From NCBI GenBank assembly GCA_964420965.1, contig CAYQUQ010000001.1, positions 31,544 to 95,543 on the forward strand: a stretch of DNA of 64,000 nt. Reading direction: 5' to 3'. Shown here one piece after another: positions 10,883-55,321 of the stretch. This DNA is from an uncultured Planctomycetia bacterium (GTDB lineage Bacteria > Omnitrophota > Gorgyraeia > Duberdicusellales > 4484-171). The translations under genes were made by a program, and so were the position numbers. The notes below the pieces were generated by a model. It worked only from the letters and a program-made list of their open reading frames with translations, was not told where the DNA came from and made no database searches. The stretch's first letter is position 1. Each line of letters opens with the position of its first letter.

Positions 10883-11173
10883 ATGGCCAGGCTGTCCAAA
10901 ATAAAAACGGATAAAAAGAATATCCGGACTCTGGTGATGAAGCTGGGGAATAAAAACCTGATTGTGCTGCGCGGCCAGAAAGGTTATGTTATGTGCGGGT
11001 ATTTAAGCTTAAAGGCGGCCGGTAAATTCAAGGATGCGGCGGCAGTCATTACCGGGGTTTCTACCCTTAAAGAAGCCCTTAAAGCCAAAGTTTATTCAGC
11101 TACGCTTAAGGCGAAAAGGCTGGGAATACATAAGGGTCAGTGCATAAAAGATGTCCTCAAAATTATCGCTTAA
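10883..11173 (+). CDS. DUF1805 (YunC-like) small protein
   Basis: LIVLRGQKGYVMCGYLSLKAA...ITGVSTLKEAL resembles YunC/DUF1805. Confidence 0.55.
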   Translation: MARLSKIKTDKKNIRTLVMKLGNKNLIVLRGQKGYVMCGYLSLKAAGKFKDAAAVITGVSTLKEALKAKVYSATLKAKRLGIHKGQCIKDVLKIIA

Positions 11174-13514
11174 GTTAATAGCCGGACTGGTTGTTTTGTT
11201 TTCTTTTGGCGTGACAGAAGCCTCCGGCAGCAACCCTTCCGCAGAATCTCTAAGTTCATTCACTGCGCGTTACCACGATTTGACCCTCCGGCTTGAAGAA
11301 GCCGTCGCGGCCGATCCCGATAACCTCGATTTAAGAATAAAGCTGTCCGGATTTTACTGTGATTTCCGGGATTATGAAAAGGCGATCGCCATCCTTAAAA
11401 ATATTGACTCCCGGGAAGCCAAAGTGGTACTGGCTAAGGCTTATGCTAAGCTTAAAGAGCATGATTATGCCATCGAAATCTTTGAGCAGCTTAAACCCCT
11501 TCCCGAGGATCCCGAATATCTTTATCTTTACGGCACGGTTTTAGAGGAGAAGAATTTATTCCCTAAGGCCATCAAAATTTACGCCCGGGTCGGCCCTCCG
11601 TTCGAGCTTAAAGCTAAAGAAAGAGTAAAAAGTATCCGGTTTAAGGTGGAGAAGGAAATTCCCGAAGCGATAGCAAAGATTTCCCGGAAAGCAAAAAGTT
11701 TTCTCAAAAGTATTAAAGATGACGCCGCGGTCTACCTGCTCGTTGACGAAGATATGGAAGTCCGGACCGACAACACCTCTTTGTCTACAGTGCATATTAT
11801 CGAGAAAGTTTTGAAGGAAAGGGGAAAAGAGCTGGCGGAGGTGGAGATTGGCTATGACTCTACTTATCAGCGGATAGAGCTGGAATTCGCCCGTACCATT
11901 ACCAAAGACGGTAAAGTAATTTATGCCGGGAAAGAAAACATTCGGGATATCGGCCGTTATCTTAATTATCCCCTCTACAGTAACTCCCGGGCCTTTATAG
12001 TTTCCATGCCTTCCGTGGATGTCGGTTCTTTCATCGAGTATAAAATAAAAATTTATTCCTCAAAACTGATCAATGAGGACGATTTCACTTTTATTTACCG
12101 CTTGCGGGAAAAATACCCGATATTCCGGGCTGCTTTTCGCCTGATCGTTCCCAAGAAAAGAAAGGTTAATTTTAAATTCTTCAATCCCGATTACGCTAAG
12201 GGTATAAAGCTTAAGCCTTCGGCGAAGATAAAGGGGGATAAACGGATATATTCCTGGAGTTTTAAGAAAATAGACCCGATAGTTCCTGAGTACGCCATGC
12301 CGCCCGTCTCCTTCGTTAACCCGGCAGTGTTGGTTTCCAGTTTTTCGACCTGGGAAGAGATTTATAAGTGGTGGCATTCTCTGTACCGGGATAAAATCGA
12401 GGCTACCGCAGAAATAAAAAGCTTTACCCAAAAACTTATCGCCGGTAAATCCAGCGAACGGGATAAAGCCAAAGCCATCCATGAATTCGTCGCCAAGAAT
12501 ATCCGCTATGTGGCCATCGAATACGGGGACAGCGGCTACGAGCCCCATCGGGCCGAAGAGGTATTCATCAACCGCTACGGCGATTGCAAGGACCAGGCGA
12601 TCTTACTGGTAAGCATGCTGCGGGCGGCCGGATTAAAAGCCTATCCGGTGCTCATCCCGACCCGTAAAGCCTATCCGATCGCCGAAGATTTTCCTTCTTC
12701 TAATTTTAACCACGCTATCTGCGCCGTGGAACTGGGAAAAGAGCTGATTTTCATGGATCCGACTGCCGAAGCCACTCCTTTTGCCCAGATTCCCCTTTCC
12801 GATCAGAAAAGGAAGGTGTTGGTATTTTTTGACGAAACCTACAAAATACTTACCGTCCCTCAGATAAAGGAAAATACAGTGCGCTACGTCATGGATATCG
12901 ACATCAACAGGGACGAGAATGCTACGGTTACAAGAAAGGTATATACACAAGGATTCTTTGCTTCCTCTTACCGCTGGTATTTAAAATATACCCATCCGGC
13001 TATAATCGAAGAGGACATCCGTAAAAAAATGGTCGCGCTTTCCTCGCTTTCCCGCCTTTTAGATTACGTAATAAAGGATGTCGATGATTTTGATTCTCCG
13101 CCTTCACTGGTTTATAAATTCAAGGCCGATAAATTTCTTAATCCGGCCGGTGAATTAAGAATTATCCCGGCTTTAGACGAGGTCTCTTTAAATCATGAGA
13201 TAATCAGTAAGGAGAAAAGAGATTTCCCCGTCGATTTTGAAGGGTTTTACACCAAGCAGGCGGTCATAAAGATCAATCTTCCCGGAAACTTAAAAGTTAA
13301 ATATTTACCGGACGACTTAGGTTTAGAAAATCCCTGGTTTAAGCTTTCTGCATCCTACCAGAAGCTGCCCGGGGCCATTGATTTCCGCCAGGAGCTGACG
13401 GTTAAGAAGAAATTGGTAGCCCAAAAAAATTATCCGGAATTTAAGCGTTATTTCGAGGATGCGCTTTACCGCTTAAAAGAGCAGATTATTTTAAAGAGAA
13501 ACAAACCCCGTTAG
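11151..13514 (+). CDS. Secreted TPR plus DUF3857-like plus transglutaminase-like cysteine-protease-fold protein
   Basis: Signal peptide; N-terminal TPR helices; transglutaminase core YGDCKDQAILLVSMLRAAGLKAYPVLI ... NHAICAVELGKELIFMDPT; 787 aa. Confidence 0.8.
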   Translation: MSSKLSLKLIAGLVVLFSFGVTEASGSNPSAESLSSFTARYHDLTLRLEEAVAADPDNLDLRIKLSGFYCDFRDYEKAIAILKNIDSREAKVVLAKAYAKLKEHDYAIEIFEQLKPLPEDPEYLYLYGTVLEEKNLFPKAIKIYARVGPPFELKAKERVKSIRFKVEKEIPEAIAKISRKAKSFLKSIKDDAAVYLLVDEDMEVRTDNTSLSTVHIIEKVLKERGKELAEVEIGYDSTYQRIELEFARTITKDGKVIYAGKENIRDIGRYLNYPLYSNSRAFIVSMPSVDVGSFIEYKIKIYSSKLINEDDFTFIYRLREKYPIFRAAFRLIVPKKRKVNFKFFNPDYAKGIKLKPSAKIKGDKRIYSWSFKKIDPIVPEYAMPPVSFVNPAVLVSSFSTWEEIYKWWHSLYRDKIEATAEIKSFTQKLIAGKSSERDKAKAIHEFVAKNIRYVAIEYGDSGYEPHRAEEVFINRYGDCKDQAILLVSMLRAAGLKAYPVLIPTRKAYPIAEDFPSSNFNHAICAVELGKELIFMDPTAEATPFAQIPLSDQKRKVLVFFDETYKILTVPQIKENTVRYVMDIDINRDENATVTRKVYTQGFFASSYRWYLKYTHPAIIEEDIRKKMVALSSLSRLLDYVIKDVDDFDSPPSLVYKFKADKFLNPAGELRIIPALDEVSLNHEIISKEKRDFPVDFEGFYTKQAVIKINLPGNLKVKYLPDDLGLENPWFKLSASYQKLPGAIDFRQELTVKKKLVAQKNYPEFKRYFEDALYRLKEQIILKRNKPR

Positions 13515-14830: not shown

Positions 14831-15073
14831 TTATGTTGCAATGCGTAATGCAAAATAGGGAACAACATTAAAAACGAATACAACTATTTTAAAGAAAGCT
14901 ATGCCCGCATAATGAATTGCATCGAACGTTTCTACCGGAATTTTGAACCACTTGCTATGCATACGATAAACCCAGTCATGGGCAAACAGGATAATAAAAA
15001 ACCACCACAGTAATAAGCCCATATTAATTACAGCGCACCATCCCAGTACTCCCCGCAATATGTCAACTGTCAT
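14831..15073 (-). CDS. Small hypothetical membrane protein (2-3 TM helices)
   Basis: 80-aa ORF with hydrophobic helices; RBS AAAAGGAGG 7 nt upstream; preceded by a conserved leader (see findings). Confidence 0.45.
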   Translation of the reverse strand: MTVDILRGVLGWCAVINMGLLLWWFFIILFAHDWVYRMHSKWFKIPVETFDAIHYAGIAFFKIVVFVFNVVPYFALRIAT

Positions 15074-15291: not shown

Positions 15292-16911
15292 CTACTCATT
15301 TTTCTTAACAAAAACTGCAATAGTACCTGCTACGAAAATTACAAGACCGGCAACAATCCATAGATTTGATACAAGTACTCCATAGTAAGTTACTACGATC
15401 CCAACTATCATAAAGACTATTCCTACGATCCCCTTTGCTATATGCCAAATTTTCTTATTCGAATTTAAATAAAGCTTCTTTCTTTTTATCAAACACCTAA
15501 TTGCAAACCCGACAGTAATCAGTGAAGAAATCAGTAAAAATAATAGTACACCCCCCCATTTTTTTATGAGAAAGAGTTCCCTTAAATCAGAATCGATAAA
15601 TGAAACTGCCATATGATTTCCTATACTGAGATAAAATCTTTTTAATTGCCAATAAAGCCCTTTCGCTTCGCGGTATCTTCCAGTGTCACCATAAAGGTCT
15701 GCTAAATCTTCGTACCGCCAAACGTCATCTGCATTGGCAACGTTAGGCTCTATTTGAATGGATTTCTCGTAATAAGATATTGATTTGTCAGGATCTCGCC
15801 AGCGGTAAATTGCACCAATTCTTGCGTATGGTACATGGTGTTCCGGGTTTATCTCGATTGCTTTTTGGTATAGTTCAACTGACTTTTGATAATCCCTTAT
15901 ACCTCCATACGCCTTAGCAAGCAGCATATAGAGATCAAAAGAATCAGGTTTTAACTCTAAGGCTTTCTCGAAATAAGTAATCGCTTCACGGTATTGATCT
16001 TCCGAGGGCACATAATCTCCCTGAAGCGCTTTCTCCCCCTGCATCCGATAATAATCTGCTTTTGTCGATTCATCAATACCCCCAAAAGCTAATTTACGAT
16101 ATTTTTCTAAAACTGGCTTGATATGATTGATTGCTAAGGCAAAATTAATGTTTTGACCTTCTCTATATTGCCAGGTGACTAAGCCGATAACCTCTCCTTT
16201 GGAATTGATGAGAGGGCCGCCGCTATTCCCTGGAGATACGGGAGCGGTCAATTGAAGCCAACGTAAATCCTGATCATGCCGAACACCCGATAATACTCCA
16301 TCACTAAAGGAATATTCCAATCCTAATGATGCTCCTATGCAATAAACAGCTTCTCCGGTTTCTACTGTATCAGAATTACCCAGATTAACGACGGGGAGAC
16401 GATCGGCAGTAATTTTTAGAATCGTCATGTCATATTTAGGGTCTGTATATACTACGCTTTCTATAGGAAATGTTGATTCGTCCTTCAGCACAACCACGAG
16501 TCTCTCCCGATCAAATTGATGGCCAACTACATGATGATTAGTAATAATCAAACCTTTACTATCTACAATAAATCCACTTCCGATATTTTCTCTTCTTTCA
16601 CTCCCATACTCTTTTTTAGAGAAATATACAACAGCCGGGCTTACATCTGCAAAGATGTCTCGAGATGATTTTATTGAAGATGTTCTAGATGAAAATTTAT
16701 TTTGTTCCTCGTTGACTGCCTCACCAATAATCTTCTCGATATCTTCCCGATAATAGGTCATCGGCACACCGTAAACATCTATTTTTATATAATCCTCAGC
16801 TCTTTCGATTATTTCTGCCTCTATGGTTCTGCCGGATTTGAGAATAATTATTTCGGCAAATAGAGGCGATGTTAACACTAGAGATAGCAAGGCAATAATT
16901 AATTTTTTCAT
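15292..16911 (-). CDS. Secreted trypsin-like serine protease (S1C/DegP-type core) plus TPR repeats plus C-terminal transmembrane segment; paralogue P1 of the N-module family
   Basis: Signal peptide then ETIILKSG-type N-module; protease motifs TNHHVV, DMTILK, GNSGGPLIN; TPR block; 2 C-terminal TM helices; RBS AAGGAG. Confidence 0.85.
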   Translation of the reverse strand: MKKLIIALLSLVLTSPLFAEIIILKSGRTIEAEIIERAEDYIKIDVYGVPMTYYREDIEKIIGEAVNEEQNKFSSRTSSIKSSRDIFADVSPAVVYFSKKEYGSERRENIGSGFIVDSKGLIITNHHVVGHQFDRERLVVVLKDESTFPIESVVYTDPKYDMTILKITADRLPVVNLGNSDTVETGEAVYCIGASLGLEYSFSDGVLSGVRHDQDLRWLQLTAPVSPGNSGGPLINSKGEVIGLVTWQYREGQNINFALAINHIKPVLEKYRKLAFGGIDESTKADYYRMQGEKALQGDYVPSEDQYREAITYFEKALELKPDSFDLYMLLAKAYGGIRDYQKSVELYQKAIEINPEHHVPYARIGAIYRWRDPDKSISYYEKSIQIEPNVANADDVWRYEDLADLYGDTGRYREAKGLYWQLKRFYLSIGNHMAVSFIDSDLRELFLIKKWGGVLLFLLISSLITVGFAIRCLIKRKKLYLNSNKKIWHIAKGIVGIVFMIVGIVVTYYGVLVSNLWIVAGLVIFVAGTIAVFVKKNE

Positions 16912-19219: not shown

Positions 19220-22200
19220 ATGCTGTCATTTTTTCAGAGGCAGAAGGCCACTGTCTCTCTCCGCTTATTAGGTGCATTACTCATTTTCTTTCTGTTTATC
19301 TCTCTAGCCGCTACCTACTTACCTAAGAGATCACCGAAGTATGCTGATTTTCTTCCTCCCCCCGGCAAACTAGTAGCTTTAACCCCCGCCTTTATCCCGC
19401 CGCTTTTACGCGGCCTGACCATCTATCCCCAGGATCCTTTTCGCTTCGACTTCTATATCGAAAACGGCGACAAACACCTTAAAGATGAACAGTTTAAACA
19501 AGAATCCCGGCAGCTGATCAAGTACTTTTTAGCGGCCTTAACCATACCCGAGGAAGACTTCTGGGTCAACCTCTCCCCTTACGAACAAGAAAGAATCGCT
19601 CCTGAGGACTTAGGCGTAACCGAGCTGGGAAAAGCCCTCTTAGGCCAGGACTATATCTTAAAACAACTCCTGGCTTCCCTGATGCACCCGGACAGTGAGA
19701 CCGGAAAAGAGTTCTGGAAGCGGGTCTATAGACGCGCCCATGAGCTCTACGGCACGACCAAAATACCCATTAACACCTTCAACAAGATTTGGATTATGCC
19801 GGAGAAGGCCTTAGTTTACGCCCGGGACAATACCGCTTATGTGGTGGAAAGCCGCCTCAAAGTTTTACTGGAAGAAGACTACCTGGCCTTAAAGCAAAAT
19901 CTTAACCACCCGGCTCCCGGTTCGGAAAAGCTCTCGCCGGATAAGACCAAGGTTTTATGCCGGATATCTTCTAATCTGATCAAGGAAGTCATCCTGCCGG
20001 AAATCGAAACAGAAATCAACCAGGGAGAAAACTTCGCCTCTTTGAGGCAGGCCTTTAACGCCATGGTCTTAGCCGCCTGGTTTAAACGCCGCCTTAAAAC
20101 TCACCTCCTCAATCAGGTCTATACCGATAAAGCCAAACTCAAAGGTGTCGATCTTAAAGATAAAGCCACCAAACAAAAAATCTACCAGCAATACTTAGAG
20201 GCCTACCGGCAAGGCGTATACAACTACATCAAGACTGAATATGACCCCAATATGCAGAAAAACATTTCCCGCCAGTACTACAGCGGCGGCTTTGCCTGGG
20301 GAAAGCCCGGGGAATGGTTGGGTGAGACCGGCCAGGCCCCCTTATCCCGCCGGGAAGGAGCCAATGTCCAGGTGGCTTTGCGGGCGGAAATGGGGCAGAC
20401 AAGGAGAGTTTCCTCGCCCAGTGAGAGTAGTGGAGATGAGCTTAAGGTTCTCTATAACGCGGCTTTAGCCGGTGATAGTTCCGCGGTAAACCAGTTAAAG
20501 GCATTTGCTCTCTCTTCCGACCACGCCCTAGCCCAAAGCGCCTACGAATACCTGGATCACCTGGCCTACAAAGAAAGCAACTTAGAGAGCATCCAGGCCG
20601 TAAAGGAGCTGGCCCTTTCTGCGGATATACCCCGGGAAGCCAAACTTAATTCCAATAGCCAGGGTATCATCGATGACTTAGCTTATATCGTCCGGGAAGC
20701 CCAGCACCATATCAGCAGCGAAGCCCGCAAGGCGGCTTTAGACGCTTTAGAGGAAATCATGTTTGCTTATGCTAAGAGCGATACCAAGATAGCCGATTAT
20801 ATCTTAAACCGCATATTCACCCCCTTAAGGAATGGCTACATAAACACTATCCCCGACGGAGCCGAGCTGGCCACCCAGGCCTTAAAAAGAATGGTGGAGT
20901 CTGACCAGATCGGTTCAGGCTTAACTGCCCAGGCTTTAACGGCTAAACCGGAACAACCCTTAGCCGTATTTAATACCGTAACTGACCCGGCGGCCCAAGG
21001 ATATACCCCTGGGCATAAAAAGACAGCCTTGGAAAACTTAAACCTGGCCCAGGCCGCCCAGGTAATCCCCCGGATAAAGGAGCTGGTCTTCTCCCAGGAC
21101 CACGCCCTAGCCCAAAGCGCCTACGAATACCTGGATCACCTGGCCTACAAAGAAAGCAACTTAGACAGCATCCAGGCCGTGAAGGAGCTGGCCCTGTCTG
21201 CGGATATACCCCGGAAGGCTAAACTTGACTCCAATAACCAGGGCATTATCGATGACTTAGCTTATATCGTCCGGGAAATACAACTGAACGTCAGCAGAGA
21301 AGCCCGCAAGGCGGCCCTGGCGGCTTTAGAAGAGATCCTGTTTGCCTACGCTAACGATACCAACATAGCCGATTACATCTTGAACCGCGTATTCATCGCC
21401 CTAAGGGAACAGGTGATAAGCGCTATCCCCGACGGAGCCGAGCTGGCCACCCAGGCTTTAAAAAGAATGGTGGAGTCTGACCAGATCGGCCCAGGTTTAA
21501 CGGCCCGGGCCTTAACGGCTAAACCGGAACAACCCTTAGCCGTATTTAATACCGTAACTGACCCGGCGGCCCAAGGATATACCCCTGGGCATAAAAAGAC
21601 AGCCTTGGAAAACTTAAACCTGGCCCAGGCCGCCCAGGTAATCCCCCGGATAAAGGAGCTGGTCTTCTCCCAGGACCACGCCCTAGCCCAAAGCGCCTAC
21701 GAATACCTGGATCACCTGGCCTACAAAGAAAGCAACTTAGACAGCATCCAGGCCGTGAAGGAGCTGGCCCTGTCTGCGGATATACCCCGGAAGGCTAAAC
21801 TTGACTCCAATAACCAGGGCATCATCGATGACTTAGCTTATATCGTCCGGGAAACCCAGCACCATATCAGCAGCGAAGCCCGCAAAGCGGCCCTGGCGGC
21901 TTTAGGAGAGATTGCTGCCGCTGATTTTGCCGACGATGCTATCATCAGATACTTACAGAATGATAACGGCGTTAAAGCAATAATCCGCAGTACCTCACTA
22001 CCAGCTATCCCCCAAGATTTATGGGAGTTGCTACAAACAGCTAATCAGGATGCTCCTTCCAACAAGCAGATAAATTTAGAATCATTTATGGCTGACTACT
22101 GGCTTACCGTGGCCCGGCTTTACCACCTGGATCCACGCTATTGCCGCCAGATATTTGACGCTATCCTTTCCGGCCTGGGGCCAAAGCGGCTAGCGGCATT

Positions 22201-25200
22201 CTTAAAGGATATACAACCGGCCCTTTGGGATGAAACCATTTACCCAGCATTAAAGTCAATATTTAAACAGGCCCAAGAGCGGGATCATGCTTATGCCCAG
22301 AGAATTATCGAGTTAGCTGCCGCCTATAAGGATTTAGGGATCAGCCAGTTATTTGTGCAGCTGGCCGCGCAGGAAGCCCAAAAACGCCGGGTTACGGTCC
22401 GGCAGGTATATTTAGCTCTAGCCCAGGAGTTAATCAAAGCCTTTGCCCAGAAACTGGGAGTTACCCTGGACCGGGTGACTGCCGAGACCATTGAAAATTG
22501 GTATTTGCCTTATTTATCCAAGCTGTTTGTGGGCCGGCGCATTGTCTATGCTCACGGCAGCAGCCACCGGCCCCTGCAGCAGCTATTCGATTCAGTGATC
22601 AAGGCCACCCTGGAAGGTAAATTCGCTGAGATGATCACTGATACCAGTGATGCCAACGCTTATCCCATGGGTAAAAGAATTGCTGAGCAGAATCAGAAGG
22701 TGAGAAAAGCCTTAGAGTTATTAGGCATTGACTTAGAAGAGTGGTTAGGCTATCAAGAGGAAGCCCGGTTTAGCTTAGAGCAGGCCCAGGGCAGCCGGAT
22801 TGATGTGGCCGCAGAATTACAGGGCTTGGCCGAGCAGTTTTTCGCTCTTCTCGATAAGCTGCAGGAAAAGCACGGGAATATGGTCAGGGGTAGTTTAGGT
22901 AAGATGGGCTTAGAATTAGTGGAAGATGCTCAAGGCAGGCGTCTGGTTCAGAATAATGGTCGGCAGGAAACCAATCAGAAAGTGGCCCTTAAAGCCTTGA
23001 TGGGTTTATTATTTAAAAACCAGGGTAACTTCAGCAAACTCCAGAAAAGCTTGAATTTCCTGGATAGAAATTATCAGGGCCAGGAAGCGGCTACCTTAAT
23101 CTTCCACATCCGGGAAAAACTAGAGATGCTTAACCGCCTGGTCAATAATCCCGCAGAATTTAAAAAAGCCCTGGAAGGCCCGCAGGCATTTTTAATCCGC
23201 AGGTGGGCCCGAAATCCCGGCCGGGATATCTTCCAGGGTAACTTTACCGGATGCTGTGTGGCTATCGATAACGACTTACACCCGGAGGCCATTATCGAAT
23301 ACCTCATTGACCAGGGGATTCAGATTGTGGAGGTTGTTGATGAGGCTACCGGCTTAGCCGTAGCCCAGACATGGGTTTTTGTAGCCGTTAATCAAAACGG
23401 CAAGCCGGTTTTAGTTTTAGACAATATTGAAGTCGAGGAAACTTACCCTAAAACTTCCGGTCAGAATAAAATAATCCGTGATCACCTGGTAGCCTACATG
23501 CAGAAATATGCGCAGGCTATCGACGTCGAGGAGCTTTATTTAGGGGTAACCCAGTACAACGATGTGAACACCAGTGATTACCCCACTGTTTCTGATCAGT
23601 TGGTCAAGCCCGGGGGTTACCTCTGGGATTTTGAAGGCGCAAACTATACCTACTATTTAGAGTCCATGTACGGCGAAACCGTTCAGCAGAGTTCGCACCG
23701 CGCCGACGGAAGTATCCCTTCTACGGCCCGGCAGTTCCACCGCCTTCCTTTGCCTAAGCTTCCGCCTAAACCGGTGGATAATAGCCGGATCGGCGTCGAC
23801 CGCGTTCTACCCGATCAGGCCGAGGGGATTTTAGATCAACTGGTCCAGGTAGAGGCCGGGGCTTATTCTAATCCGGAATTAAGGCTGGGAAGAGAATTTT
23901 TACGCCACTCCGTAAATAATCCCCAGGGGGTCAATATGGTATTGCGCTACAAGGGAAGAATAATCGGCTACGCCCTCTCTGTTCCGGCTGAGGACGAGGA
24001 GGCTGCTCCCCAGATTCCCCACAGCCTTTACCTTGAGGATTTTGCTATTCTGCCCGAGTTCCGCAATAATCCGGCGGCCAATCTTAAGTTTATCCGGGGA
24101 TTTCTCCGGGAGGTAACCAACGGTACCTATCAGACCGTAACCCTGCATACTCATGGTGGGATTGTCAAATTTCTGGTGGATGATTTTGGCTTTGCCATAG
24201 TCGGTAAAGAAGATAATTGGCTTGATTCGGGAGAGACCTTTTATTTATTGCGCTGGGATAAGGCTTCTTCTTCGGTCTCCTCACCATCGTCTTCTCCCCG
24301 CAGAGAGGAGCTAGAGAGGTTACGCGATGCCCTGATGAATGCCGCGGAGAGATTAAAATCGAATCTCGTCCTACACCATAAGGAAGTAGAAGATTTTCAT
24401 AGCACAGTCAGTATATATAATGGACAAGAAATGACCACCGGAGAAATGCTGGATGAACTCAGAAGAGGTATGTATAGGATTAAAACCCGCGAAGAATTAA
24501 TGGATGAGTTGCACCTCTGGATGGATTGGCATATTGAGCATGCATTACATGTAGATAGTGTTGTTTCCCACGCTGCTTCCCGCAGCTCCAAACAAGTGGT
24601 AAGAGAATTGCTGATCAGAGAGTTCGATCTTAAGACTTTAATGTTGATCGATATAGAATATTTAGAGGGGGAAGGAAAAGGCTTTGCCCGGGGCGGATAC
24701 GGAATAGGTAAACACGAGAAATTAGACGAACCGAGACAAAAACAAGTAGCCCAGTGGTATAATCGCCATTTATATGAAGGATTCGAAGTCTTACAGACGG
24801 TTTTAGAAGAGCGGGAACTTCCCTGGGAAGTTGATTTTCAGGAGTATGAACAGTCATTTAAATTTTGGTTTCCTGACAATATTTCTCGGCCTATTGCCCG
24901 CGAGCGGCAGAGAGGGCAGACTTACGAAGATAGCGTGAATGCCAGTCTTGCGGAGGTTAATGCAGCCATTAAGGAGGTTAATGAGGAGTTACGCCAGTAT
25001 GCTGATCCCGATGAAAGTTCATCGTCCCCCAACGCCTCGTCCTCATCCCAGCCGGACGGTACAGGAAAAGATATTACCAGAAGAAGATTTTTGAAGCGTC
25101 TGACCGCGACTGCAACTGTAGCGACGGTAGCGCCTAATGATATCATTCTACCGGGATCCACGTTACCGTCTCCGGCATCTCCAGTCAGAATAAGTTATGC

Positions 25201-26281
25201 TCTTCTGCGCGATATGCTATCAGGAATAGGTGCTGTTCAAATGCCTACTACAGGGAGTCGGGGTAATTTAATTGTATTTGATGATTTTCCTTTTTGGTGG
25301 CATCTGCGGAGAGTATTGCCAGAGGGGCAGAAAGATGAAGCAGAAAAAATTGCAGAAAAATTACTGAGAGCGGCTGTGTTAGAGGCCAGACAGAGGCTGA
25401 GGACAGCAGGGATTATAGAGACAGGAGAGGCCGCAGAACAAGTTATTGGAGATATCGAGAGGGCATTCGATGATTCAGCCCATGAGGTTCGTAGAACGAT
25501 AGAGAAAGGAGGTTATTCAGAAGACCTGGTATACGATGCTATTAAAAAAGCACAAAAAGCAATAGCGCAACAGCAGGATAAAAAAGAGGATGGCCTTGAG
25601 CAACCAGAACCGGAGATCATGTACACCGACTCCGGCTTTCCGGACTTTGATATTACCCAGATGCAGGATATAGAGCTTATTGGACGAATTGAGGTAATCG
25701 AAGCTGACCTGTTCAGGCAGCTGCAGCTAAGGAGTGCTTCTGACCGGGATATCCGCACACTCGCCGGCCGTATCTATCTGGCCCAGCGGGCAGCAGAGGG
25801 AAGGGCTATGGCTGAAGTAACTGATCTTAGTCCGATTGGTAATATCACCCAAGATGATCTAGAGTCAATCGGCGGCCGCGTGTTAGGTCTGATGGGGATG
25901 AGCGGGGTAGGCGAAAGTCCGCCTGAAGGTCAACCCAAGCAGGCAGGACTTACCGTCTTATCAACGACAGATTCGTCTTCTCCCAACGCTTCGTCCTCAT
26001 CCCAGCCGACACGGAGGGGCAACAACGCCGCCGGGGAGGGTGTCGGCAGACCATTCCTCAAAGGTAACCAAACACCCGGCGGCATTGATTTTAACCCTGA
26101 TAACCTGGATTTACAGGTTATCGGGGATAATAGCAGGGAGCGGTCTCGACCGTTCCCTGCTGAATCTCAGCTTCCTTTCGATACCCATAATTTCCAAGGC
26201 TTTACCTTCCAGATTCTCAAAATCGAGCCGGTTACAGACCCAGTCCATATTACCAAAGGACCCCAGCTTTCTCGCCGCTAA
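19220..26281 (+). CDS. Giant modular membrane-anchored protein (2,353 aa) with internal 192-aa tandem repeats and Ser/Pro-rich linkers; function unknown
   Basis: Uninterrupted 7,062-bp ORF; N-terminal TM helix LLGALLIFFLFISLAA; repeat array 20515-21915; possible GNAT-like segment at about 23900-24260; internal Tat-like motif TRRRFLKRL; duplicated linker SSSPNASSSSQP. Confidence 0.8.
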   Translation: MLSFFQRQKATVSLRLLGALLIFFLFISLAATYLPKRSPKYADFLPPPGKLVALTPAFIPPLLRGLTIYPQDPFRFDFYIENGDKHLKDEQFKQESRQLIKYFLAALTIPEEDFWVNLSPYEQERIAPEDLGVTELGKALLGQDYILKQLLASLMHPDSETGKEFWKRVYRRAHELYGTTKIPINTFNKIWIMPEKALVYARDNTAYVVESRLKVLLEEDYLALKQNLNHPAPGSEKLSPDKTKVLCRISSNLIKEVILPEIETEINQGENFASLRQAFNAMVLAAWFKRRLKTHLLNQVYTDKAKLKGVDLKDKATKQKIYQQYLEAYRQGVYNYIKTEYDPNMQKNISRQYYSGGFAWGKPGEWLGETGQAPLSRREGANVQVALRAEMGQTRRVSSPSESSGDELKVLYNAALAGDSSAVNQLKAFALSSDHALAQSAYEYLDHLAYKESNLESIQAVKELALSADIPREAKLNSNSQGIIDDLAYIVREAQHHISSEARKAALDALEEIMFAYAKSDTKIADYILNRIFTPLRNGYINTIPDGAELATQALKRMVESDQIGSGLTAQALTAKPEQPLAVFNTVTDPAAQGYTPGHKKTALENLNLAQAAQVIPRIKELVFSQDHALAQSAYEYLDHLAYKESNLDSIQAVKELALSADIPRKAKLDSNNQGIIDDLAYIVREIQLNVSREARKAALAALEEILFAYANDTNIADYILNRVFIALREQVISAIPDGAELATQALKRMVESDQIGPGLTARALTAKPEQPLAVFNTVTDPAAQGYTPGHKKTALENLNLAQAAQVIPRIKELVFSQDHALAQSAYEYLDHLAYKESNLDSIQAVKELALSADIPRKAKLDSNNQGIIDDLAYIVRETQHHISSEARKAALAALGEIAAADFADDAIIRYLQNDNGVKAIIRSTSLPAIPQDLWELLQTANQDAPSNKQINLESFMADYWLTVARLYHLDPRYCRQIFDAILSGLGPKRLAAFLKDIQPALWDETIYPALKSIFKQAQERDHAYAQRIIELAAAYKDLGISQLFVQLAAQEAQKRRVTVRQVYLALAQELIKAFAQKLGVTLDRVTAETIENWYLPYLSKLFVGRRIVYAHGSSHRPLQQLFDSVIKATLEGKFAEMITDTSDANAYPMGKRIAEQNQKVRKALELLGIDLEEWLGYQEEARFSLEQAQGSRIDVAAELQGLAEQFFALLDKLQEKHGNMVRGSLGKMGLELVEDAQGRRLVQNNGRQETNQKVALKALMGLLFKNQGNFSKLQKSLNFLDRNYQGQEAATLIFHIREKLEMLNRLVNNPAEFKKALEGPQAFLIRRWARNPGRDIFQGNFTGCCVAIDNDLHPEAIIEYLIDQGIQIVEVVDEATGLAVAQTWVFVAVNQNGKPVLVLDNIEVEETYPKTSGQNKIIRDHLVAYMQKYAQAIDVEELYLGVTQYNDVNTSDYPTVSDQLVKPGGYLWDFEGANYTYYLESMYGETVQQSSHRADGSIPSTARQFHRLPLPKLPPKPVDNSRIGVDRVLPDQAEGILDQLVQVEAGAYSNPELRLGREFLRHSVNNPQGVNMVLRYKGRIIGYALSVPAEDEEAAPQIPHSLYLEDFAILPEFRNNPAANLKFIRGFLREVTNGTYQTVTLHTHGGIVKFLVDDFGFAIVGKEDNWLDSGETFYLLRWDKASSSVSSPSSSPRREELERLRDALMNAAERLKSNLVLHHKEVEDFHSTVSIYNGQEMTTGEMLDELRRGMYRIKTREELMDELHLWMDWHIEHALHVDSVVSHAASRSSKQVVRELLIREFDLKTLMLIDIEYLEGEGKGFARGGYGIGKHEKLDEPRQKQVAQWYNRHLYEGFEVLQTVLEERELPWEVDFQEYEQSFKFWFPDNISRPIARERQRGQTYEDSVNASLAEVNAAIKEVNEELRQYADPDESSSSPNASSSSQPDGTGKDITRRRFLKRLTATATVATVAPNDIILPGSTLPSPASPVRISYALLRDMLSGIGAVQMPTTGSRGNLIVFDDFPFWWHLRRVLPEGQKDEAEKIAEKLLRAAVLEARQRLRTAGIIETGEAAEQVIGDIERAFDDSAHEVRRTIEKGGYSEDLVYDAIKKAQKAIAQQQDKKEDGLEQPEPEIMYTDSGFPDFDITQMQDIELIGRIEVIEADLFRQLQLRSASDRDIRTLAGRIYLAQRAAEGRAMAEVTDLSPIGNITQDDLESIGGRVLGLMGMSGVGESPPEGQPKQAGLTVLSTTDSSSPNASSSSQPTRRGNNAAGEGVGRPFLKGNQTPGGIDFNPDNLDLQVIGDNSRERSRPFPAESQLPFDTHNFQGFTFQILKIEPVTDPVHITKGPQLSRR
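20515..21915 (+). repeat. About 2.4 tandem copies of a 576-579-bp coding repeat inside the giant ORF (copy 1 20515-21093, copy 2 21094-21669, partial copy 3 21670-about 21915)
   Basis: Identical string ccacgccctagcccaaagcgcctacgaatacctggatcacctggcctacaaagaaagcaacttag at 20521, 21100 and 21676; the copy ends share more than 150 bp of exact identity. Confidence 0.9.
26132..26161. repeat. Near-palindromic 30-mer related to the korA palindrome, inside the giant ORF 3' region
   Basis: agcagggagcggtctcgaccgttccctgct (2 mismatches from a perfect palindrome). Confidence 0.8.
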
Positions 26282-29165: not shown

Positions 29166-30182
29166 ATGAAAGTAGCGGTTTTAGGTTGTGGAGCCATCGG
29201 CGGACTTGTCTTAGGGTATCTGTCCCGGGAGGGGTGCGATGTGATAGGGATTGTGCGGGACTATCAAAAGGAACTCCTGTTGAAAGCCGGTTTAAATATA
29301 GAGGGCGTTCGGGGCAACCAAGCCATTAAGGTAAAAGTCGACACAGCTTTAAGGGAAAGGGTAGACCTGGCCATTTTTGCCACTAAGATAAACAATCTCG
29401 AGGACATTATAAAAGAAAATATCGCGTTTTTAAAAGACTCGACCGCTCTTTCTACTCAAAACGGCATCCAGGCCGATTACCTGCTGAATAAGTTTTTTGT
29501 TCCAGAAAAAATTATCACCGGTATCGTTATGTTCGGGGCCACTTTTTACGCTCCCAGCAAAGTTGTGCATAATTTTGAAGGGGATTTTATATTAGGTAAT
29601 ATATATAATACTAAAGTAAATTCTTTGGATAATGTCCTAAACTTATTAAAGCCGGCTTTCAATGCCGTTAATTTAGAAAATATAAAGGGTGCTAAGTACC
29701 TGAAATTATTTATCAATTTGAATAATTGCCTCCCGGCTATTTTAGGACTCTCCATGCAGGAGACTTATTCCGATATAGATTTAGCTAAGTTAGCCATACA
29801 ACTTAATAAAGAGGCTTACGTAGTTATAAGCAAAGCCAATATTAAATTAGAGAGCCTGCCAAGTTATCCCCAAGAAAGAATACAGGGCTTAATCTCAATG
29901 CCGATTGAAGAAGCGGCCGGCCTTTTTTCCAAAATAATGACCAATTTAAGCAAAGAACCTTTATACGGCTCAATCTTGCAGAGTATAAAACGCGGCAAAA
30001 AATCAGAGATTGATTACATCAACGGAGAAATCAGGCACCAGGCCACAGCTAATAAACAGCAAGCACCTTTAAATACAAAAATAGTTGAATTGGTGCATCA
30101 GGTGGAAGAAAGGGGTAGGTTTTTTTCTAAGGAAGAATTGCTATCGCAGTTAAAAGGAGCAGTGTCCCATGAAAAATTATAA
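29166..30182 (+). CDS. 2-dehydropantoate 2-reductase (ApbA/PanE) family NAD(P)-dependent oxidoreductase
   Basis: N-terminal Rossmann MKVAVLGCGAIGGLVLGYL; ApbA-like length and C-terminal domain. Confidence 0.75.
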   Translation: MKVAVLGCGAIGGLVLGYLSREGCDVIGIVRDYQKELLLKAGLNIEGVRGNQAIKVKVDTALRERVDLAIFATKINNLEDIIKENIAFLKDSTALSTQNGIQADYLLNKFFVPEKIITGIVMFGATFYAPSKVVHNFEGDFILGNIYNTKVNSLDNVLNLLKPAFNAVNLENIKGAKYLKLFINLNNCLPAILGLSMQETYSDIDLAKLAIQLNKEAYVVISKANIKLESLPSYPQERIQGLISMPIEEAAGLFSKIMTNLSKEPLYGSILQSIKRGKKSEIDYINGEIRHQATANKQQAPLNTKIVELVHQVEERGRFFSKEELLSQLKGAVSHEKL

Positions 30183-30792
30183 AGCAGAATATTGCCAGGC
30201 TAATTGCGCGGAAATAAATACCCCTTTTCCCCGGATCAAGCTGACTTGCATCGGTGTTTACGGCGAGTGTTATCACGGGTATGAGGTCGGCGATGAATTT
30301 ATTTTAGGTGATTTTACCCATCCGCCTCAGCACTTTTGTTTAGGCTTAGCCCATGCGGTTTTTCCGGTGGCCTATGCTTTAAGCTTCGGCGCTAAATTCG
30401 GCTTTATGGAGAATCAAAAATCATTAAAGGTAACCTGTCCCGACGGGGGCAAAGCCGAATTTTTAGTGGAATTGCTGGATAAAAATGACCAGGTTAAGTT
30501 TGTGCCCAAAGATCCCCATCACAAAGGGCCTAATCCCAAAGATATGGAGATCGAGGTGGTAAAAGCCCAGGGAAAGTGTTCTTACGGTTATAAGATTGGT
30601 GATAAATGGGAGATAAAGGGTTTAAAGTGCATCGAGGGTTTTTGCGGGGCGGCCTGGCATACGGCTTTTCCGGCCCTGTTCGCCCTTAATTTCGGAGCCA
30701 AGTTTTTCTTTATGAAGGACCACAACTCCATAGACACAGTAACCTGCCCTGACGGAGGCAATATTGTGTTTAGAGTTAGACGGAAGGAATAG
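30169..30792 (+). CDS. Cys-rich protein with an internal tandem duplication of an approximately 100-aa domain (TIGR04076-like)
   Basis: Two homologous halves: CIGVYGECYHGYEVGDEF...FCLGLAHAVFPVAYALSFGAKFGFM...VTCPDGG and CSYGYKIGDKWEI...FCGAAWHTAFPALFALNFGAKFFFM...VTCPDGG; overlaps the upstream gene by 14 nt. Confidence 0.65.
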   Translation: MKNYKAEYCQANCAEINTPFPRIKLTCIGVYGECYHGYEVGDEFILGDFTHPPQHFCLGLAHAVFPVAYALSFGAKFGFMENQKSLKVTCPDGGKAEFLVELLDKNDQVKFVPKDPHHKGPNPKDMEIEVVKAQGKCSYGYKIGDKWEIKGLKCIEGFCGAAWHTAFPALFALNFGAKFFFMKDHNSIDTVTCPDGGNIVFRVRRKE

Positions 30793-46774: not shown

Positions 46775-47596
46775 TCAATTCTGTTGTTCCTTTCCATTTG
46801 TTATTCGTTTTATTTCCTGATAAATTTCAGAACGATATTGGTCACCACCTATTTTGGAAAGAATATAATCTATTCTCAGTCGAGGAAATTGCCATTCGGG
46901 AGCAAGGCGAATTGCTTCTAAATGTGCGTCGATCGCCTCCTTATAATTACCAAGATATTCATAAGCCCAGCCCATGCTACAGTATGCTCTTGCAAAATCA
47001 GGAAAAAGAGAAATAGTTATTTTGCAGGCATCTATCGAGTCTTGAAAACGGCCCATAAGTCTGTAAGTAACGGCTTTATTTTGATAAGCGTCATACAGCA
47101 TGGGATTATGTATGATTGCCTTGTTGAATTCAACAAGAGCCTTATCATATTCTTTTAACGTCATATAGCAGGAGCCAATGCCGTAACGAGCCATACCAGC
47201 TTCTTTCCTGGCTATTCCTAAGGCACCCTGAAATTCTTTCAGGGCTTCCTTGGGTTTGCCTGATTTTTGCAAAGAGACACCCCTCTCATTGTATAAAGCG
47301 AATTCGGCTATATTAACGAGTTGGCCATAGTATTTTTCTGGCGACGAAATGGCGAGGGGCTCACGAGAATAACTGTTTTTTTCTACAGGGAGGCTGATTT
47401 TTTCATTCCCGATACATTCAATCTCATCAAAATAACAAGTGAACGGTATTCCCTGAAAATTAATTCTTATGTAATTTTCGGTACGTTCAATTATTTTTGC
47501 ATCGATTATCTCTCCCGATTTCAATTTAATGGTTTCAGCAAAGACAAAACTTAAAAAGGTTAAACTTATCAGAACTAATCCGATTACCTTCTTCAT
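46775..47596 (-). CDS. Secreted TPR-repeat protein; paralogue P2 of the N-module family
   Basis: Signal peptide plus ETIKLKSGEIIDAKIIERTENYIRINFQGIPFTCYFDEIECI; TPR block; start at the ATG rc at 47594-47596 with RBS GGGGAG. Confidence 0.8.
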   Translation of the reverse strand: MKKVIGLVLISLTFLSFVFAETIKLKSGEIIDAKIIERTENYIRINFQGIPFTCYFDEIECIGNEKISLPVEKNSYSREPLAISSPEKYYGQLVNIAEFALYNERGVSLQKSGKPKEALKEFQGALGIARKEAGMARYGIGSCYMTLKEYDKALVEFNKAIIHNPMLYDAYQNKAVTYRLMGRFQDSIDACKITISLFPDFARAYCSMGWAYEYLGNYKEAIDAHLEAIRLAPEWQFPRLRIDYILSKIGGDQYRSEIYQEIKRITNGKEQQN

Positions 47597-47705
47597 TTCA
47601 CTCCCCTTTTTTATTTTCATCCAACACAAAAATCACCTGCCTGACGAGCCCGCGACTCTAGGGAGCGGCGAGGAAGGTCAGGTGGATTGACTTGTATCAG
47701 TTATT
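47597..47705 (-). promoter_or_regulatory. 5' leader of P2 sharing boxes CACCTGACCTTCC and GATTTTTGTGTTGGATGA with the 15100-15240 leader
   Basis: rc reads caatcCACCTGACCTTCCtcgccgctccctagagtcgcgggctcgtcaggcaGGTGATTTTTGTGTTGGATGAaaataAAAAAAGGGGAGtgaaATG. Confidence 0.5.
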
Positions 47706-47712
47706 CATTTGA

Positions 47713-48102
47713 TTACTTTTCAAAATAGTTTTTAAGGCAAATGACATAACCGAGAATAATTAAACAAATGAAAAAAATAATGGATATGGCAATTTTTATC
47801 GAGATATCTGCAGAGTCGATTCGAGAAAAATTATTTAATAAAAAAATTACGATACGTACAATCGGGATAGAGTATAAGATGATACCTATTTTCCATGCAC
47901 TTTTTTGTAGAGATAGAAACGCATATCCCCACCATATCTGGAATACACAAAATAAGAAAGGAAAGGCCTGCGATATAAAATCCTTTTTCTGAATAAGGTG
48001 GTATGGGTCCCAAATAATAATAGATATGCCGATAATTCCGCTAAAGATAGAAAGCCCACTAATTAGTTTTAATCCAAACGGTTTGGCATCTTCGTACTTC
48101 AT
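47713..48102 (-). CDS. Hypothetical membrane protein (AT-rich gene)
   Basis: 129-aa ORF with 4 hydrophobic helices; directly upstream of P2 in the direction of transcription. Confidence 0.5.
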   Translation of the reverse strand: MKYEDAKPFGLKLISGLSIFSGIIGISIIIWDPYHLIQKKDFISQAFPFLFCVFQIWWGYAFLSLQKSAWKIGIILYSIPIVRIVIFLLNNFSRIDSADISIKIAISIIFFICLIILGYVICLKNYFEK

Positions 48103-50006: not shown

Positions 50007-51161
50007 TTAATTTACCCTCTTCGTTTTTAAGAGGGTAATCTCTATCTGGGCGCTTTTGCCTATCGGGGTAGAGGCTATTTTTTCCCTGGCCGTAACCTCG
50101 ATACTGGCCCCGCGAAACAGAGTCCCGAAATCTTTAGAATTGGTCTGCCCGTAATACTCCCGGATGTGGTGTTCATACCGGAAACAATAATAATTTTTTC
50201 CTTTAGAGATGCCGAAAGTGGGGTCGACCGGGACCCAGCCGTATCGCGGTAGATAAATTTCCACCCAGGCATGGCCGACATCGGTTACGCATTTATTCCG
50301 GGAGACGTTAGGCATAAACACGATACCGTCTACTTCCCGCGCCGGAATGCCGCTGGTCCGGGCCAGGGCAATGAACAGCCTGGACAGATCAGCGCAATTT
50401 CCCTTTTTTATCCGGAGGGTTTGATCCGGGTTTTGAAATCCCGAAATTTCCGGCCGGTGTTCATAGGTAAAATTGCGGGTTATAAAGTTATACAGGGCTC
50501 TGCCTTTGCGATAAGGATTTTTTATATTTTTAGTTATGGATCGCGCCGTATTCTTAAGCAGCTTATTATTGATTTTTGCGTCTTTATAGCTTTTTAAATA
50601 AGCGCGGACTTTGGAATTCAGCTTGCCGTAACGGTCGGGAATAGCTTCCGGTTTCAGGCGTAAATCCGTCTGTTGTACCTGGATGGAATAGGAAATATTT
50701 ATATTAATATTTTTCCCGGTTCGGGGCCGGGGAAAGTCGAAAACAGCCACCTTATTATTATTCGGATCGTCGATAAGGGCATCGTGTTTAGGAAGAGTGC
50801 GAATAGTGGATATGGCCTGGTAGGATAAATTCCTGAGTCCTACCGGATAGCGGAAGCGCAAAGTATGCAAGTCCATAAGAGGTCTAATCGTAAAAGTTTT
50901 TTTCACCTTATAGGAAATGAGGTTTTTTATTACCGGCCTTTTGCGTTTTGAGGGGTAGTCTTTGATTTTGGCGATATCATCCCGGGGGTATTTTAAGGTA
51001 AGGTCGTCAATTTCAATTACGATATACCGGTCAGTTTTTTTTACGATTTCACCCCTTATTTTCCGGCCGGACTTAAAAGTAATCGTGTCGGCAAAAAGCA
51101 ATTGGCCAAAACAGCAGATTACTAGGGGGAGAAGTAATATTGTTTTATCGAGTTTCATCAA
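50007..51161 (-). CDS. Secreted transglutaminase-like cysteine-protease-fold protein; paralogue P3 of the N-module family
   Basis: Signal peptide plus DTITFKSGRKIRGEIVKKTDRYIVIEIDDLTLKYPRDDIAKI; core GNCADLSRLFIALARTSGIPAREV...GHAWVEIYLPRYGWVPVDPT. Confidence 0.8.
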   Translation of the reverse strand: MMKLDKTILLLPLVICCFGQLLFADTITFKSGRKIRGEIVKKTDRYIVIEIDDLTLKYPRDDIAKIKDYPSKRKRPVIKNLISYKVKKTFTIRPLMDLHTLRFRYPVGLRNLSYQAISTIRTLPKHDALIDDPNNNKVAVFDFPRPRTGKNININISYSIQVQQTDLRLKPEAIPDRYGKLNSKVRAYLKSYKDAKINNKLLKNTARSITKNIKNPYRKGRALYNFITRNFTYEHRPEISGFQNPDQTLRIKKGNCADLSRLFIALARTSGIPAREVDGIVFMPNVSRNKCVTDVGHAWVEIYLPRYGWVPVDPTFGISKGKNYYCFRYEHHIREYYGQTNSKDFGTLFRGASIEVTAREKIASTPIGKSAQIEITLLKTKRVN

Positions 51162-51710
51162 TCAAAAAAATACTGTTTTGAGCGTTAGTACAATGTAGCC
51201 GGCGGGAAAGCAAAAGGCAGCTATTCCTAATGGGTATAAAGCCGGCATGCGCTTATTGGTTTTTACATCCCGGGCTACCAGAAAGACAACGCCTAGGAAT
51301 ACGGCCCCGATGGAGCCGATTAAACCGGCCAGGCCGATAAATATATTTTGGCCGACACCTCTGGCAATAACCAGCGAGAGGATGGTCCCGATAATAAAGT
51401 TAAGGGCACAAAATATAAATCCACTCAGGATAATCTTTTCTCTCCCCACCCGGTAGGTTAATTCTTCCGGGGTGAGTTTAAGCTTCGGGTATCGGGGGTT
51501 ATATTTCCGGGCCATAATTTTTTCAATCGTCAATAAGCAGAAGATACTGTAGGCCCCGATCAGGATATCGAAGATAAAAGGCTTGGTTCCGGAAGCAGCC
51601 AGAGTGCCGCGGGCGGCATTAAAAAAATGGTAATCAGAAGCATAGCAGGCCAGCCGCAGGGTCCAGACCATAGACTCCGACCAGAAATAATCCCATTTAT
51701 TGACGGTCAT
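51162..51710 (-). CDS. Hypothetical polytopic membrane protein, co-operonic with P4 and P3
   Basis: 182 aa, about 5 TM helices; overlaps P4 by 14 nt and abuts P3. Confidence 0.55.
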   Translation of the reverse strand: MTVNKWDYFWSESMVWTLRLACYASDYHFFNAARGTLAASGTKPFIFDILIGAYSIFCLLTIEKIMARKYNPRYPKLKLTPEELTYRVGREKIILSGFIFCALNFIIGTILSLVIARGVGQNIFIGLAGLIGSIGAVFLGVVFLVARDVKTNKRMPALYPLGIAAFCFPAGYIVLTLKTVFF

Positions 51711-55051: not shown

Positions 55052-55321
55052 TTAATTAAGAATTGATTTCAATTCTTTGGATGCTCTAAAAGCAATCTTT
55101 TTCTTGGCCGGAACGTTGACCGGTTCGCCAGTCTTAGGATTGCGGGCCACTCTTGCTTTTGTCTGTTTTACTTTGAAAGTTCCAAAACCAGAAATAGCTA
55201 CCGGCTCCTTTTTCTTAAGACTACTCTTGATTGAGTCCCAGAGCATCTCCACGATTTCCTGAGCTTGTTTTTTCGTAGCTGTCTTAGCCGCGATTACTTC
55301 AACCAGTTGCGCTTTGTTCAT
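55052..55321 (-). CDS. hup: DNA-binding protein HU
   Basis: MNKAQLVEVIA.KT...K.A...V........SL..GE.V.I.GFGTF.V....AR.ARNP.TGE; 89 aa. Confidence 0.93.
   Translation of the reverse strand: MNKAQLVEVIAAKTATKKQAQEIVEMLWDSIKSSLKKKEPVAISGFGTFKVKQTKARVARNPKTGEPVNVPAKKKIAFRASKELKSILN

Follow-up and report, generated by a model that had tools for sequence, protein, structure and literature searches.

Four genes in a 64,000-nucleotide stretch of DNA from an uncultured member of the Omnitrophota (contig CAYQUQ010000001.1 of assembly GCA_964420965.1; the whole stretch is called the window here) encode exported proteins that share a ~45-residue module directly behind the signal peptide and differ in the cargo that follows. 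The explanation preferred here, which is tentative, is that the module serves docking or assembly in the periplasm or envelope of the Omnitrophota, as opposed to export. The Omnitrophota form a widespread phylum without cultivated members, whose very small cells are thought to be dependent on other microbes or to prey upon them, and we know of almost nothing established about their envelope.

In the proposed mechanism, removal of the Sec signal peptide would leave the module, predicted to be a small β-barrel, as the very amino terminus of the mature protein. The barrel would bind one shared partner, which could be a protein of the envelope, a component of the cell wall or surface layer, or the module itself in other copies, and a short polar linker would hold the varied cargo at a common envelope site. 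The cargo docked in this way would consist of interaction scaffolds (TPR, ankyrin, MORN, and PsbP-like) and enzymes (an HtrA-like serine protease and a transglutaminase-like cysteine protease). A periplasmic location and a common partner are the steps that we infer, and the evidence that favors them is the position of the barrel at the mature amino terminus, the variety of the cargo, the conservation of the module surface, the restricted and expanded family, the membrane-anchored members, and the copies that are not amino-terminal.

The window genes and their common module

The four genes and their parts are listed below, with the expect value (E) of the match between each module and NF047433, an NCBIfam model described in a later section, where one was recorded. 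Lengths are in amino acids (aa).

15292–16911, minus strand: gene 1, 539 aa, with a signal peptide, the module, an HtrA-like serine protease, TPR repeats, and three carboxy-terminal membrane helices
16858–16911, minus strand: gene 1 signal peptide, read from the translation as MKKLIIALLSLVLTSPLF and followed by A at position −1
16723–16857, minus strand: module copy 1 (gene 1), AEIIILKSGRTIEAEIIERAEDYIKIDVYGVPMTYYREDIEKIIG, E = 4.4e-8
15304–15555, minus strand: gene 1 carboxy-terminal membrane tail found by a hydropathy scan, three hydrophobic helices with the K/R-rich loop RCLIKRKKLYLNSNKK after the first
46775–47596, minus strand: gene 2, 273 aa from an ATG (the longest open reading frame starts from a TTG at 47629), with a signal peptide, the module, and TPR repeats
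47405–47539, minus strand: module copy 2 (gene 2), AETIKLKSGEIIDAKIIERTENYIRINFQGIPFTCYFDEIECIGN, E = 3.5e-7
50007–51161, minus strand: gene 3, 384 aa from a TTG (an ATG lies at 51158), with a signal peptide, the module, a ~130-aa linker region, and a transglutaminase-like cysteine protease core
50958–51092, minus strand: module copy 3 (gene 3), the most divergent, ADTITFKSGRKIRGEIVKKTDRYIVIEIDDLTLKYPRDDIAKIKD, E = 4.3e-11
51697–52461, minus strand: gene 4, 254 aa, with a signal peptide, the module, and a predicted helical domain
52273–52407, minus strand: module copy 4 (gene 4), the nearest to the family consensus, AETIILKSGKTVEGKIIEKAKGKIKVDIGGIPITYYTEDIDSING, modeled as mc94367ac52a9

An earlier note on this DNA had described four minus-strand genes with a signal peptide and a shared ~45-aa module, and all four open reading frames are present as described. 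Its spelling of the gene 1 module as E-T-I-I-L-K-S-G is in error, and the translation reads A-E-I-I-I-L-K-S-G. The different downstream domains that it named (a trypsin-like protease with TPR and a membrane tail, TPR only, a transglutaminase-like fold, and a helical domain) match what is found here. Gene 1 matches Trypsin_2 (E = 1.7e-31, residues 111–244) and TPR_8/TPR_1 (residues 305–422), and the intact His/Asp/Ser triad motifs TNHHV, DMTILK, and GNSGGPL are readable in its translation. TPR is the sole cargo of gene 2 (TPR_1, E = 6.7e-27), and an identical 273-aa protein is present in public collections (P0008). Gene 3 matches Transglut_core (E = 3.8e-27, residues 204–314), and its translation contains Cys (GNCAD), His (GHAWVE), and Asp (VDP) motifs. 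The carboxy-terminal domain of gene 4 matched no Pfam family and is predicted to be helical at low confidence in a single-sequence AlphaFold2 model of the full-length protein (predicted local distance difference test score (pLDDT) = 49), and the same domain recurs in 19 other module proteins.

All four window proteins start with a positively charged, lysine-rich n-region that leads into a hydrophobic core and an (L/V)FA sequence, with the module directly after it, which is the arrangement of a Sec-type signal peptide. Cleavage is predicted after the conserved Ala in all four proteins. The residue that follows this Ala is Glu or Asp in 4/4 window copies and in nearly all of 150 relatives. The junction reads (L/V)-F-A and then E/D-T/I-I, with no Cys at +1 and hence no lipobox. 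Relatives share the n/h/c layout and the FA|E junction in ~90% of cases. The K/R-rich loop in the membrane tail of gene 1 would, by the positive-inside rule, put the bulk of that protein (protease, TPR, and barrel) in the periplasm. The gene 1 barrel could then hardly be an export ticket, because the carboxy-terminal helices and the loop place it on the periplasmic side of a membrane that the protein does not leave.

Searching all six reading frames of the window with a profile built from the four modules gives these four copies and no others (E = 1e-24 to 1e-27, with E > 2 for the next best), a circular test since the profile was made from the same four modules. Two independent profiles give the same answer for these proteins. 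The curated model NF047433 matches all four (E = 4e-11 to 4e-7), and a profile made of unrelated metagenomic members scores the four modules at 60–80 bits. No more module copies and no secretion genes are present in ~16 kb of further contig sequence beyond the window. Pairwise identity between the window modules is 39–59% over 46 aa and 33–60% over the 45-aa core. The coding DNA of the modules is 49–68% identical, and third-codon positions at identical residues match in just 27–60% of cases. Because the DNA has diverged to this degree, the modules are old paralogues maintained by selection and not the product of recent duplication or gene conversion. Some seven window proteins have a signal-peptide-like amino terminus by a crude hydropathy estimate, and since four of them carry the module, it would be a major feature of the exported proteome of the source organism.

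The earlier note had proposed structure prediction as a check, and the model of copy 4 (pLDDT = 90.5) is a self-contained, minimal Sm/SH3-like small β-barrel of ~45 residues with near-neutral charge. The predicted fold has the five antiparallel strands (β1–β5), the 3-10 turn between β4 and β5, and the ~45–60-residue size by which the Sm/SH3-like barrel is recognized. The amino-terminal α-helix of the Sm fold is absent, and the mature chain opens in β1 with only the signal peptide before it. Foldseek searches with the module model returned Hfq for all of the best 50 matches (template modeling (TM) score of ~0.8), and a monomeric designed SH3 protein is also among the best structural matches. 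Homology to Hfq was considered and rejected. Profile-profile comparison by hhalign gave a probability of 0.4% and E = 0.16 over 13 aligned columns in the Sm1-like stretch, with four sequences on the Hfq side. The likeness to Hfq lies at the level of the predicted fold only. A sequence search of the PDB detected no similar chain, the best being a designed SH3 at E = 0.26.

The sequence of the module is far better conserved than that of the cargo. In 64 modules from proteins with <50% overall identity, column identity averages 69%. The polar positions E2, T3, K7, S8, E18, T20, D27, and T34 are at least 90% conserved in these 64 modules, like the core residues, which is what a partner common to all copies would demand.

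Position, cargo, and distribution of the family

Profile searching was exhaustive over 1.84 billion cluster representatives, each standing for one cluster at 50% identity, and gave 2,185 matches at E ≤ 1e-3, of which 934 had E ≤ 1e-10, in line with the large family that the earlier note had anticipated from four copies in 64 kb. The module starts at residues 15–30 in ~90% of the best 150 members, directly behind a signal peptide ending in F/Y-A, and the consensus of these 150 is AETIVLKSGKTVEGKLIEKTDKYIKIDFQGVPLTYYFDEIESIDG. A weaker second copy, either tandem or carboxy-terminal, is found in 9 of 150 representatives. In P0003, P0004, P0006, P0083, and L058:5938–6780, a second, more divergent barrel lies ~20 residues past the first. 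P0092, P0103, and P0109 have other placements, namely a carboxy-terminal copy or a copy after an amino-terminal TPR region, and in P0109 the module occupies residues 140–184 behind the TPR region. Because second, carboxy-terminal, and post-TPR copies occur, the domain is not strictly amino-terminal. Copies in the second, internal, and carboxy-terminal positions behave like a binding domain and not like an amino-terminal signal.

The downstream regions of the family (n = 223) gave 53 similarity clusters, of which 35 are singletons. Among 145 representatives, TPR is the cargo in 47 and Trypsin_2 in 10, and the others carry MORN, ankyrin with PsbP-like, PsbP-like alone, DUF5684, DUF2059, or nothing recognizable. 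Source annotations of the cluster members read 'hypothetical', 'TPR repeat protein', or 'ankyrin repeat protein'. Counterparts of all four window architectures occur in other Omnitrophota genomes, so the fusions between module and cargo are old and stable. Hydrophobic helices on the carboxy-terminal side are present in 23 of 237 members (~10%), gene 1 included, and 10 of these have three or more helices; the presence of such helices suggests that the module acts in the periplasm in the membrane-anchored members. The window also encodes a second exported transglutaminase-like protein of 787 aa (11151–13514, plus strand), which consists of a signal peptide, TPR, DUF3857, Transglut_core, and DUF3858. 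This protein has no barrel module, so within one genome similar cargo can be tagged or untagged.

Scanning a single genome for each species located the module at 77 genomic loci, with a bias toward consensus-like copies that comes from seeding the scan with a 5-sequence consensus alignment. Candidatus Omnitrophota is the label of 54 of the 77 loci. Another 11 bear the automated metagenome-assembled genome (MAG) labels 'uncultured Planctomycetales/Planctomycetia' and probably belong to the same phylum as the Omnitrophota loci. Seven loci are in one unclassified MAG, and the last 5 are single loci from other bins, including one Leptospiraceae MAG with a weaker match. Single module genes were seen in a Deltaproteobacteria bin (L020, 5.4-kb contig), in Spartobacteria (L033, 21.8-kb contig), in Candidatus Elulimicrobium of the Patescibacteria group (L070, 7.4-kb contig), and in Colwellbacteria (L076, 2.5-kb contig), and these could be mis-binned Omnitrophota contigs or cases of lateral transfer. 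The family is lineage-specific to Omnitrophota, and most of the remaining loci are probably mislabeled. The window itself, which lies on a metagenome contig of up to 193 kb, has housekeeping genes that are 65–83% identical in DNA sequence to Omnitrophota loci, and locus L065 shows synteny with the gene 1 region. Viral contigs contained no module copies.

Several genomes have multiple loci, DBS2-5.bin57 for example having 7. Beyond the central copies, the ~660 kb of sequence flanking the loci contains 14 extra copies, and there are 4 copies in the ~80 kb around the window genes, densities that suggest tens of copies per genome. Modules from the same genome are slightly more alike than modules from different genomes (59% versus 55%, a difference reached by 30 of 1000 permutations), an excess that would be consistent with a genome-specific partner with which the modules co-evolve.

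Relation to known families and the role of the module

The earlier note did not recognize the module as a named domain. This holds for Pfam, which has no family for it whether whole proteins or the 64 isolated modules are scanned, and does not hold for NCBIfam, where NF047433 detects it. The non-significant Pfam matches of the isolated modules to SH3-like families were TagH_C (best E = 0.013, in 6 of 64), the carboxy-terminal RimP SH3 (E = 0.006), and MSSS (E = 0.008), all of them far under the gathering scores. NF047433 ('Lepto_7_Nterm', LA_0442/LA_0875 N-terminal domain-containing protein) derives from Leptospira paralogues and covers the domain together with the signal peptide. All 145 representatives match it at E ≤ 1e-3, the best at 2.6e-17, over model positions 2–58 of 63, and P0003 reaches 59.1 bits against the cut-off of 43. 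The window proteins are under this cut-off (gene 3, 42.4 bits; gene 1, 32.7; gene 4, 32.4; gene 2, 29.9), and their residues from 5–13 to 45–66 align with the model from positions 1–4 to 41–59. On these scores the window copies are divergent relatives of NF047433, in which most Omnitrophota copies formally have membership.

The amino termini of two more Leptospira models, NF041881 (PTPDL family) and NF047503 (LB_137 family), also match the module, and weak matches lie at the carboxy-terminal ends of two further Leptospira family models. In NF047433, NF041881, and NF047503, as in the window genes, the signal peptide is followed at once by a barrel-type sequence (AETIILKSGK..G.I....), and the Leptospiraceae locus has the same start, NAETIILKSGKSLDGKIIKQ.... 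The NF047433 domain likewise occurs on several paralogues of one genome with differing carboxy-terminal parts, as do the four copies with four cargos in the window. The Omnitrophota modules differ from the Leptospira ones in their second half (KYIKIDFQGVPLTYYFDEIESIDG), which is distinctive and much better conserved in Omnitrophota, and in their expansion, which has reached thousands of clusters and a much wider range of cargo. The literature yielded no functional study or description of the module, the Leptospira loci, or the Omnitrophota expansion, and NF047433 is a naming model only. The window module is a borderline member of a catalogued yet unstudied domain family, and the massive expansion that put this domain at the head of the Omnitrophota exported proteome appears to be undescribed.

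SH3-like barrels are established as non-covalent cell-envelope anchors, as in the GW and SH3b modules, and GW, SH3b, and TagH_C are all SH3-like barrels. If the module docks cargo at the envelope, it would resemble SLH, GW/SH3b, or dockerin modules in function, and by this analogy GW and SH3b may be the nearest functional precedent. GW, SH3b, TagH_C, and SLH are also small modules on many exported proteins with unrelated domains, often beside the signal peptide and joined to the cargo by a linker. The module resembles none of them significantly in sequence, is smaller (45 aa versus 60–80 aa), occurs in single copy and not in arrays, and has a diderm host. Dockerins share the features of one short conserved module on dozens of cargos per organism, better conserved than the cargo and with some species-specific flavor. 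They are, in contrast, Ca-binding helical pairs, usually carboxy-terminal, whereas the module is predicted to be all-β; no cohesin-like scaffold was found, and Pfam Dockerin_1 had no match in the four proteins, the 145 representatives, or the 64 isolated modules. Comparison with Hfq, other Sm-like proteins, and other small β-barrels, among them the Hfq-like 'nose' domain found in Kustd1711, an exported cytochrome of the planctomycete Kuenenia, sets the module apart by its lack of an amino-terminal helix and of profile-level homology to Hfq, its near-neutral charge, and its predicted location outside the cytoplasm.

The earlier note had suggested a shared targeting or anchoring module together with a dedicated secretion, surface-attachment, or effector-delivery system. 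Anchoring stays the most plausible part of that suggestion, and the secretion system finds no support in gene context. The sequence also speaks against the generic domain lacking lineage specificity that the note allowed for, such as a lipoprotein sorting region, since there is no lipobox Cys and the family is restricted, while the fold itself is generic. Several observations weigh against docking or assembly at the envelope. SH3_3, SH3_8, and the other wall-binding SH3 models of Pfam had no significant match in the window proteins or the 64 modules. Self-assembly explains the conservation of nearly the whole surface no less readily than a separate receptor does, and the near-absolute position behind the signal peptide, with its conserved FA|ET junction, fits a sorting signal just as well. 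The within-genome excess in module similarity is small and could come from shared ancestry, and the share of exported window proteins that carry the module depends on the crude hydropathy count. When 885 genes of the 77 loci and the window were clustered all against all, no conserved neighbor emerged, and no non-module family was present in >7 loci or at a fixed position.

If self-assembly is the function, paralogous barrels would pair β4 to β5′ into homo- or hetero-oligomeric rings or filaments, like Hfq/Sm, and gather their cargo in the periplasm. The rank of Hfq as the best structural match, the conservation of the whole surface, and the slightly greater similarity of modules within genomes (59% versus 55%) are in keeping with such a hub. 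It lacks, however, the Sm amino-terminal α-helix and any profile homology to Hfq (probability 0.4%, 13 columns), and many small β-barrels of this fold are monomeric, as is the designed SH3 among the best matches, so that a self-assembling hub is possible though doubtful. A conserved element at the mature amino terminus behind a Sec signal peptide is also found in the TPS domain of two-partner secretion and the CsgA amino-terminal segment, which are precedents for a translocation tag. An outer-membrane or type II/pilus-related machine would in that case read the folded barrel and move the cargo to the surface, prey, or host. The placement of the module immediately after the signal peptide, seen in ~90% of the best 150 members, the conserved cleavage junction, the restriction of the family to one lineage, and a cargo rich in 'eukaryote-like' repeats (TPR, ankyrin, and MORN) and proteases, typical of effectors, agree with this, as does the proposal that Omnitrophota are host-dependent or predatory and have many type II/type IV pilus genes (PMC10066038; preprint 10.64898/2026.06.07.730766). 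The ~10% of members that are membrane-anchored by carboxy-terminal helices, with the positive-inside loop seen in gene 1, cannot leave the cell, and they argue against the pure secretion or effector-delivery tag that the earlier note had entertained. Copies in internal, tandem, and carboxy-terminal positions point the same way. The TPS domain, moreover, is a β-helix of ~250 aa with an adjacent TpsB transporter gene, and the module has no such neighbor. A co-occurring secretion or sortase-like gene, which the note had proposed to look for, is not found: no transporter is a conserved neighbor at the 77 loci, and no secretion, sortase-like, or transporter gene is present in the ~80 kb around the window genes. 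Known secretion domains had no Pfam match in the window proteins or the representatives, and a surface-display tag is on balance unlikely.

A wider version of the same thought makes the barrel the address tag of an unrecognized sorting or assembly system, present in Omnitrophota and in a smaller version in Leptospira, in which a single conserved receptor or translocon of the envelope, encoded elsewhere, would place dozens of proteases and repeat scaffolds at the surface or at a prey or host contact site. This is distinctly unlikely; if true, it would mark out the proteins that these nanobacteria use as effectors or for attachment. The module might instead be a neutral 'starter' barrel that has no common partner, aids export, folding, or solubility or acts as a spacer, and has spread as a handy 5′ cassette of signal peptide plus barrel. 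The signal peptide and the module do travel together, NF047433 spans both, the 77 loci share no conserved neighbor, and paralogous families common only in their amino-terminal region are frequent in bacteria. The surface of a neutral barrel should drift, yet the polar surface positions are at least 90% conserved over hundreds of proteins from many genomes, and in the window copies they stay while the third-codon positions are scrambled. Orthologous fusions throughout the phylum retain the module as well, and a neutral barrel is quite improbable.

A single common partner, should there be one, would amount to a new principle of envelope organization. If there is no partner, the module is still a useful annotation marker that has no Pfam counterpart. 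It heads about half of the window proteins with signal peptides and thousands of metagenome clusters, and it offers both a computational handle on the Omnitrophota exported proteome and a concrete target for finding how exported proteins are placed. The related domain in culturable Leptospira opens localization, oligomeric state, and partner to experiment now. On present evidence the module is not a new kind of molecular system.

Gene neighborhood of the window genes

The four genes lie amid housekeeping genes that include gatCAB, an S41 protease, tsaD, era, fabF, rlmN, RNase Y, and dxs. Three small membrane proteins are encoded beside them:

51162–51710, minus strand: 182-aa multi-pass membrane protein between genes 4 and 3, with no family match
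47713–48102, minus strand: 129-aa membrane protein with four helices, encoded immediately upstream of gene 2 and on its strand, with no Pfam family
14831–15073, minus strand: 80-aa DUF6868 membrane protein that follows gene 1

The gene for the 182-aa protein shares 14 nt with gene 4 and adjoins gene 3, and because of this spacing the three probably form one operon. The trio is conserved in other metagenome contigs (L001 and L002). Every module-gene cluster in the window includes one small multi-pass membrane protein on the same strand, and none of the three (182-aa, 129-aa, and DUF6868) is a recurrent neighbor of module genes at the loci of other genomes.

The credible minus-strand genes of the window are at 14831–15073, 15292–16911, 46775–47629, 47713–48102, and 50007–52461. 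All credible minus-strand genes belong to the three module-gene clusters, except for a small HU-like gene at 55055–55321, and ~52 others are on the plus strand. Minus-strand placement was rejected as a general trait of the module, with 61 of 68 module genes elsewhere lying on the majority strand of their locus. The clustering on the minus strand is a local peculiarity of the window.

Very long membrane-associated proteins are a reported trait of Omnitrophota. A 2,353-aa open reading frame (19220–26281, plus strand) has a membrane or signal segment at its amino terminus and matched nothing in Pfam at E ≤ 1e-3. Three tandem units of ~576–579 nt (~192 aa), 84–97% identical in DNA sequence, lie within it at 20491–22000. 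That this protein might act as a scaffold for the barrel-tagged proteins is pure speculation. A 207-aa protein (30169–30792, plus strand), encoded between a 2-dehydropantoate reductase-like gene and fabF, has two matches to the uncharacterized family TIGR04076.

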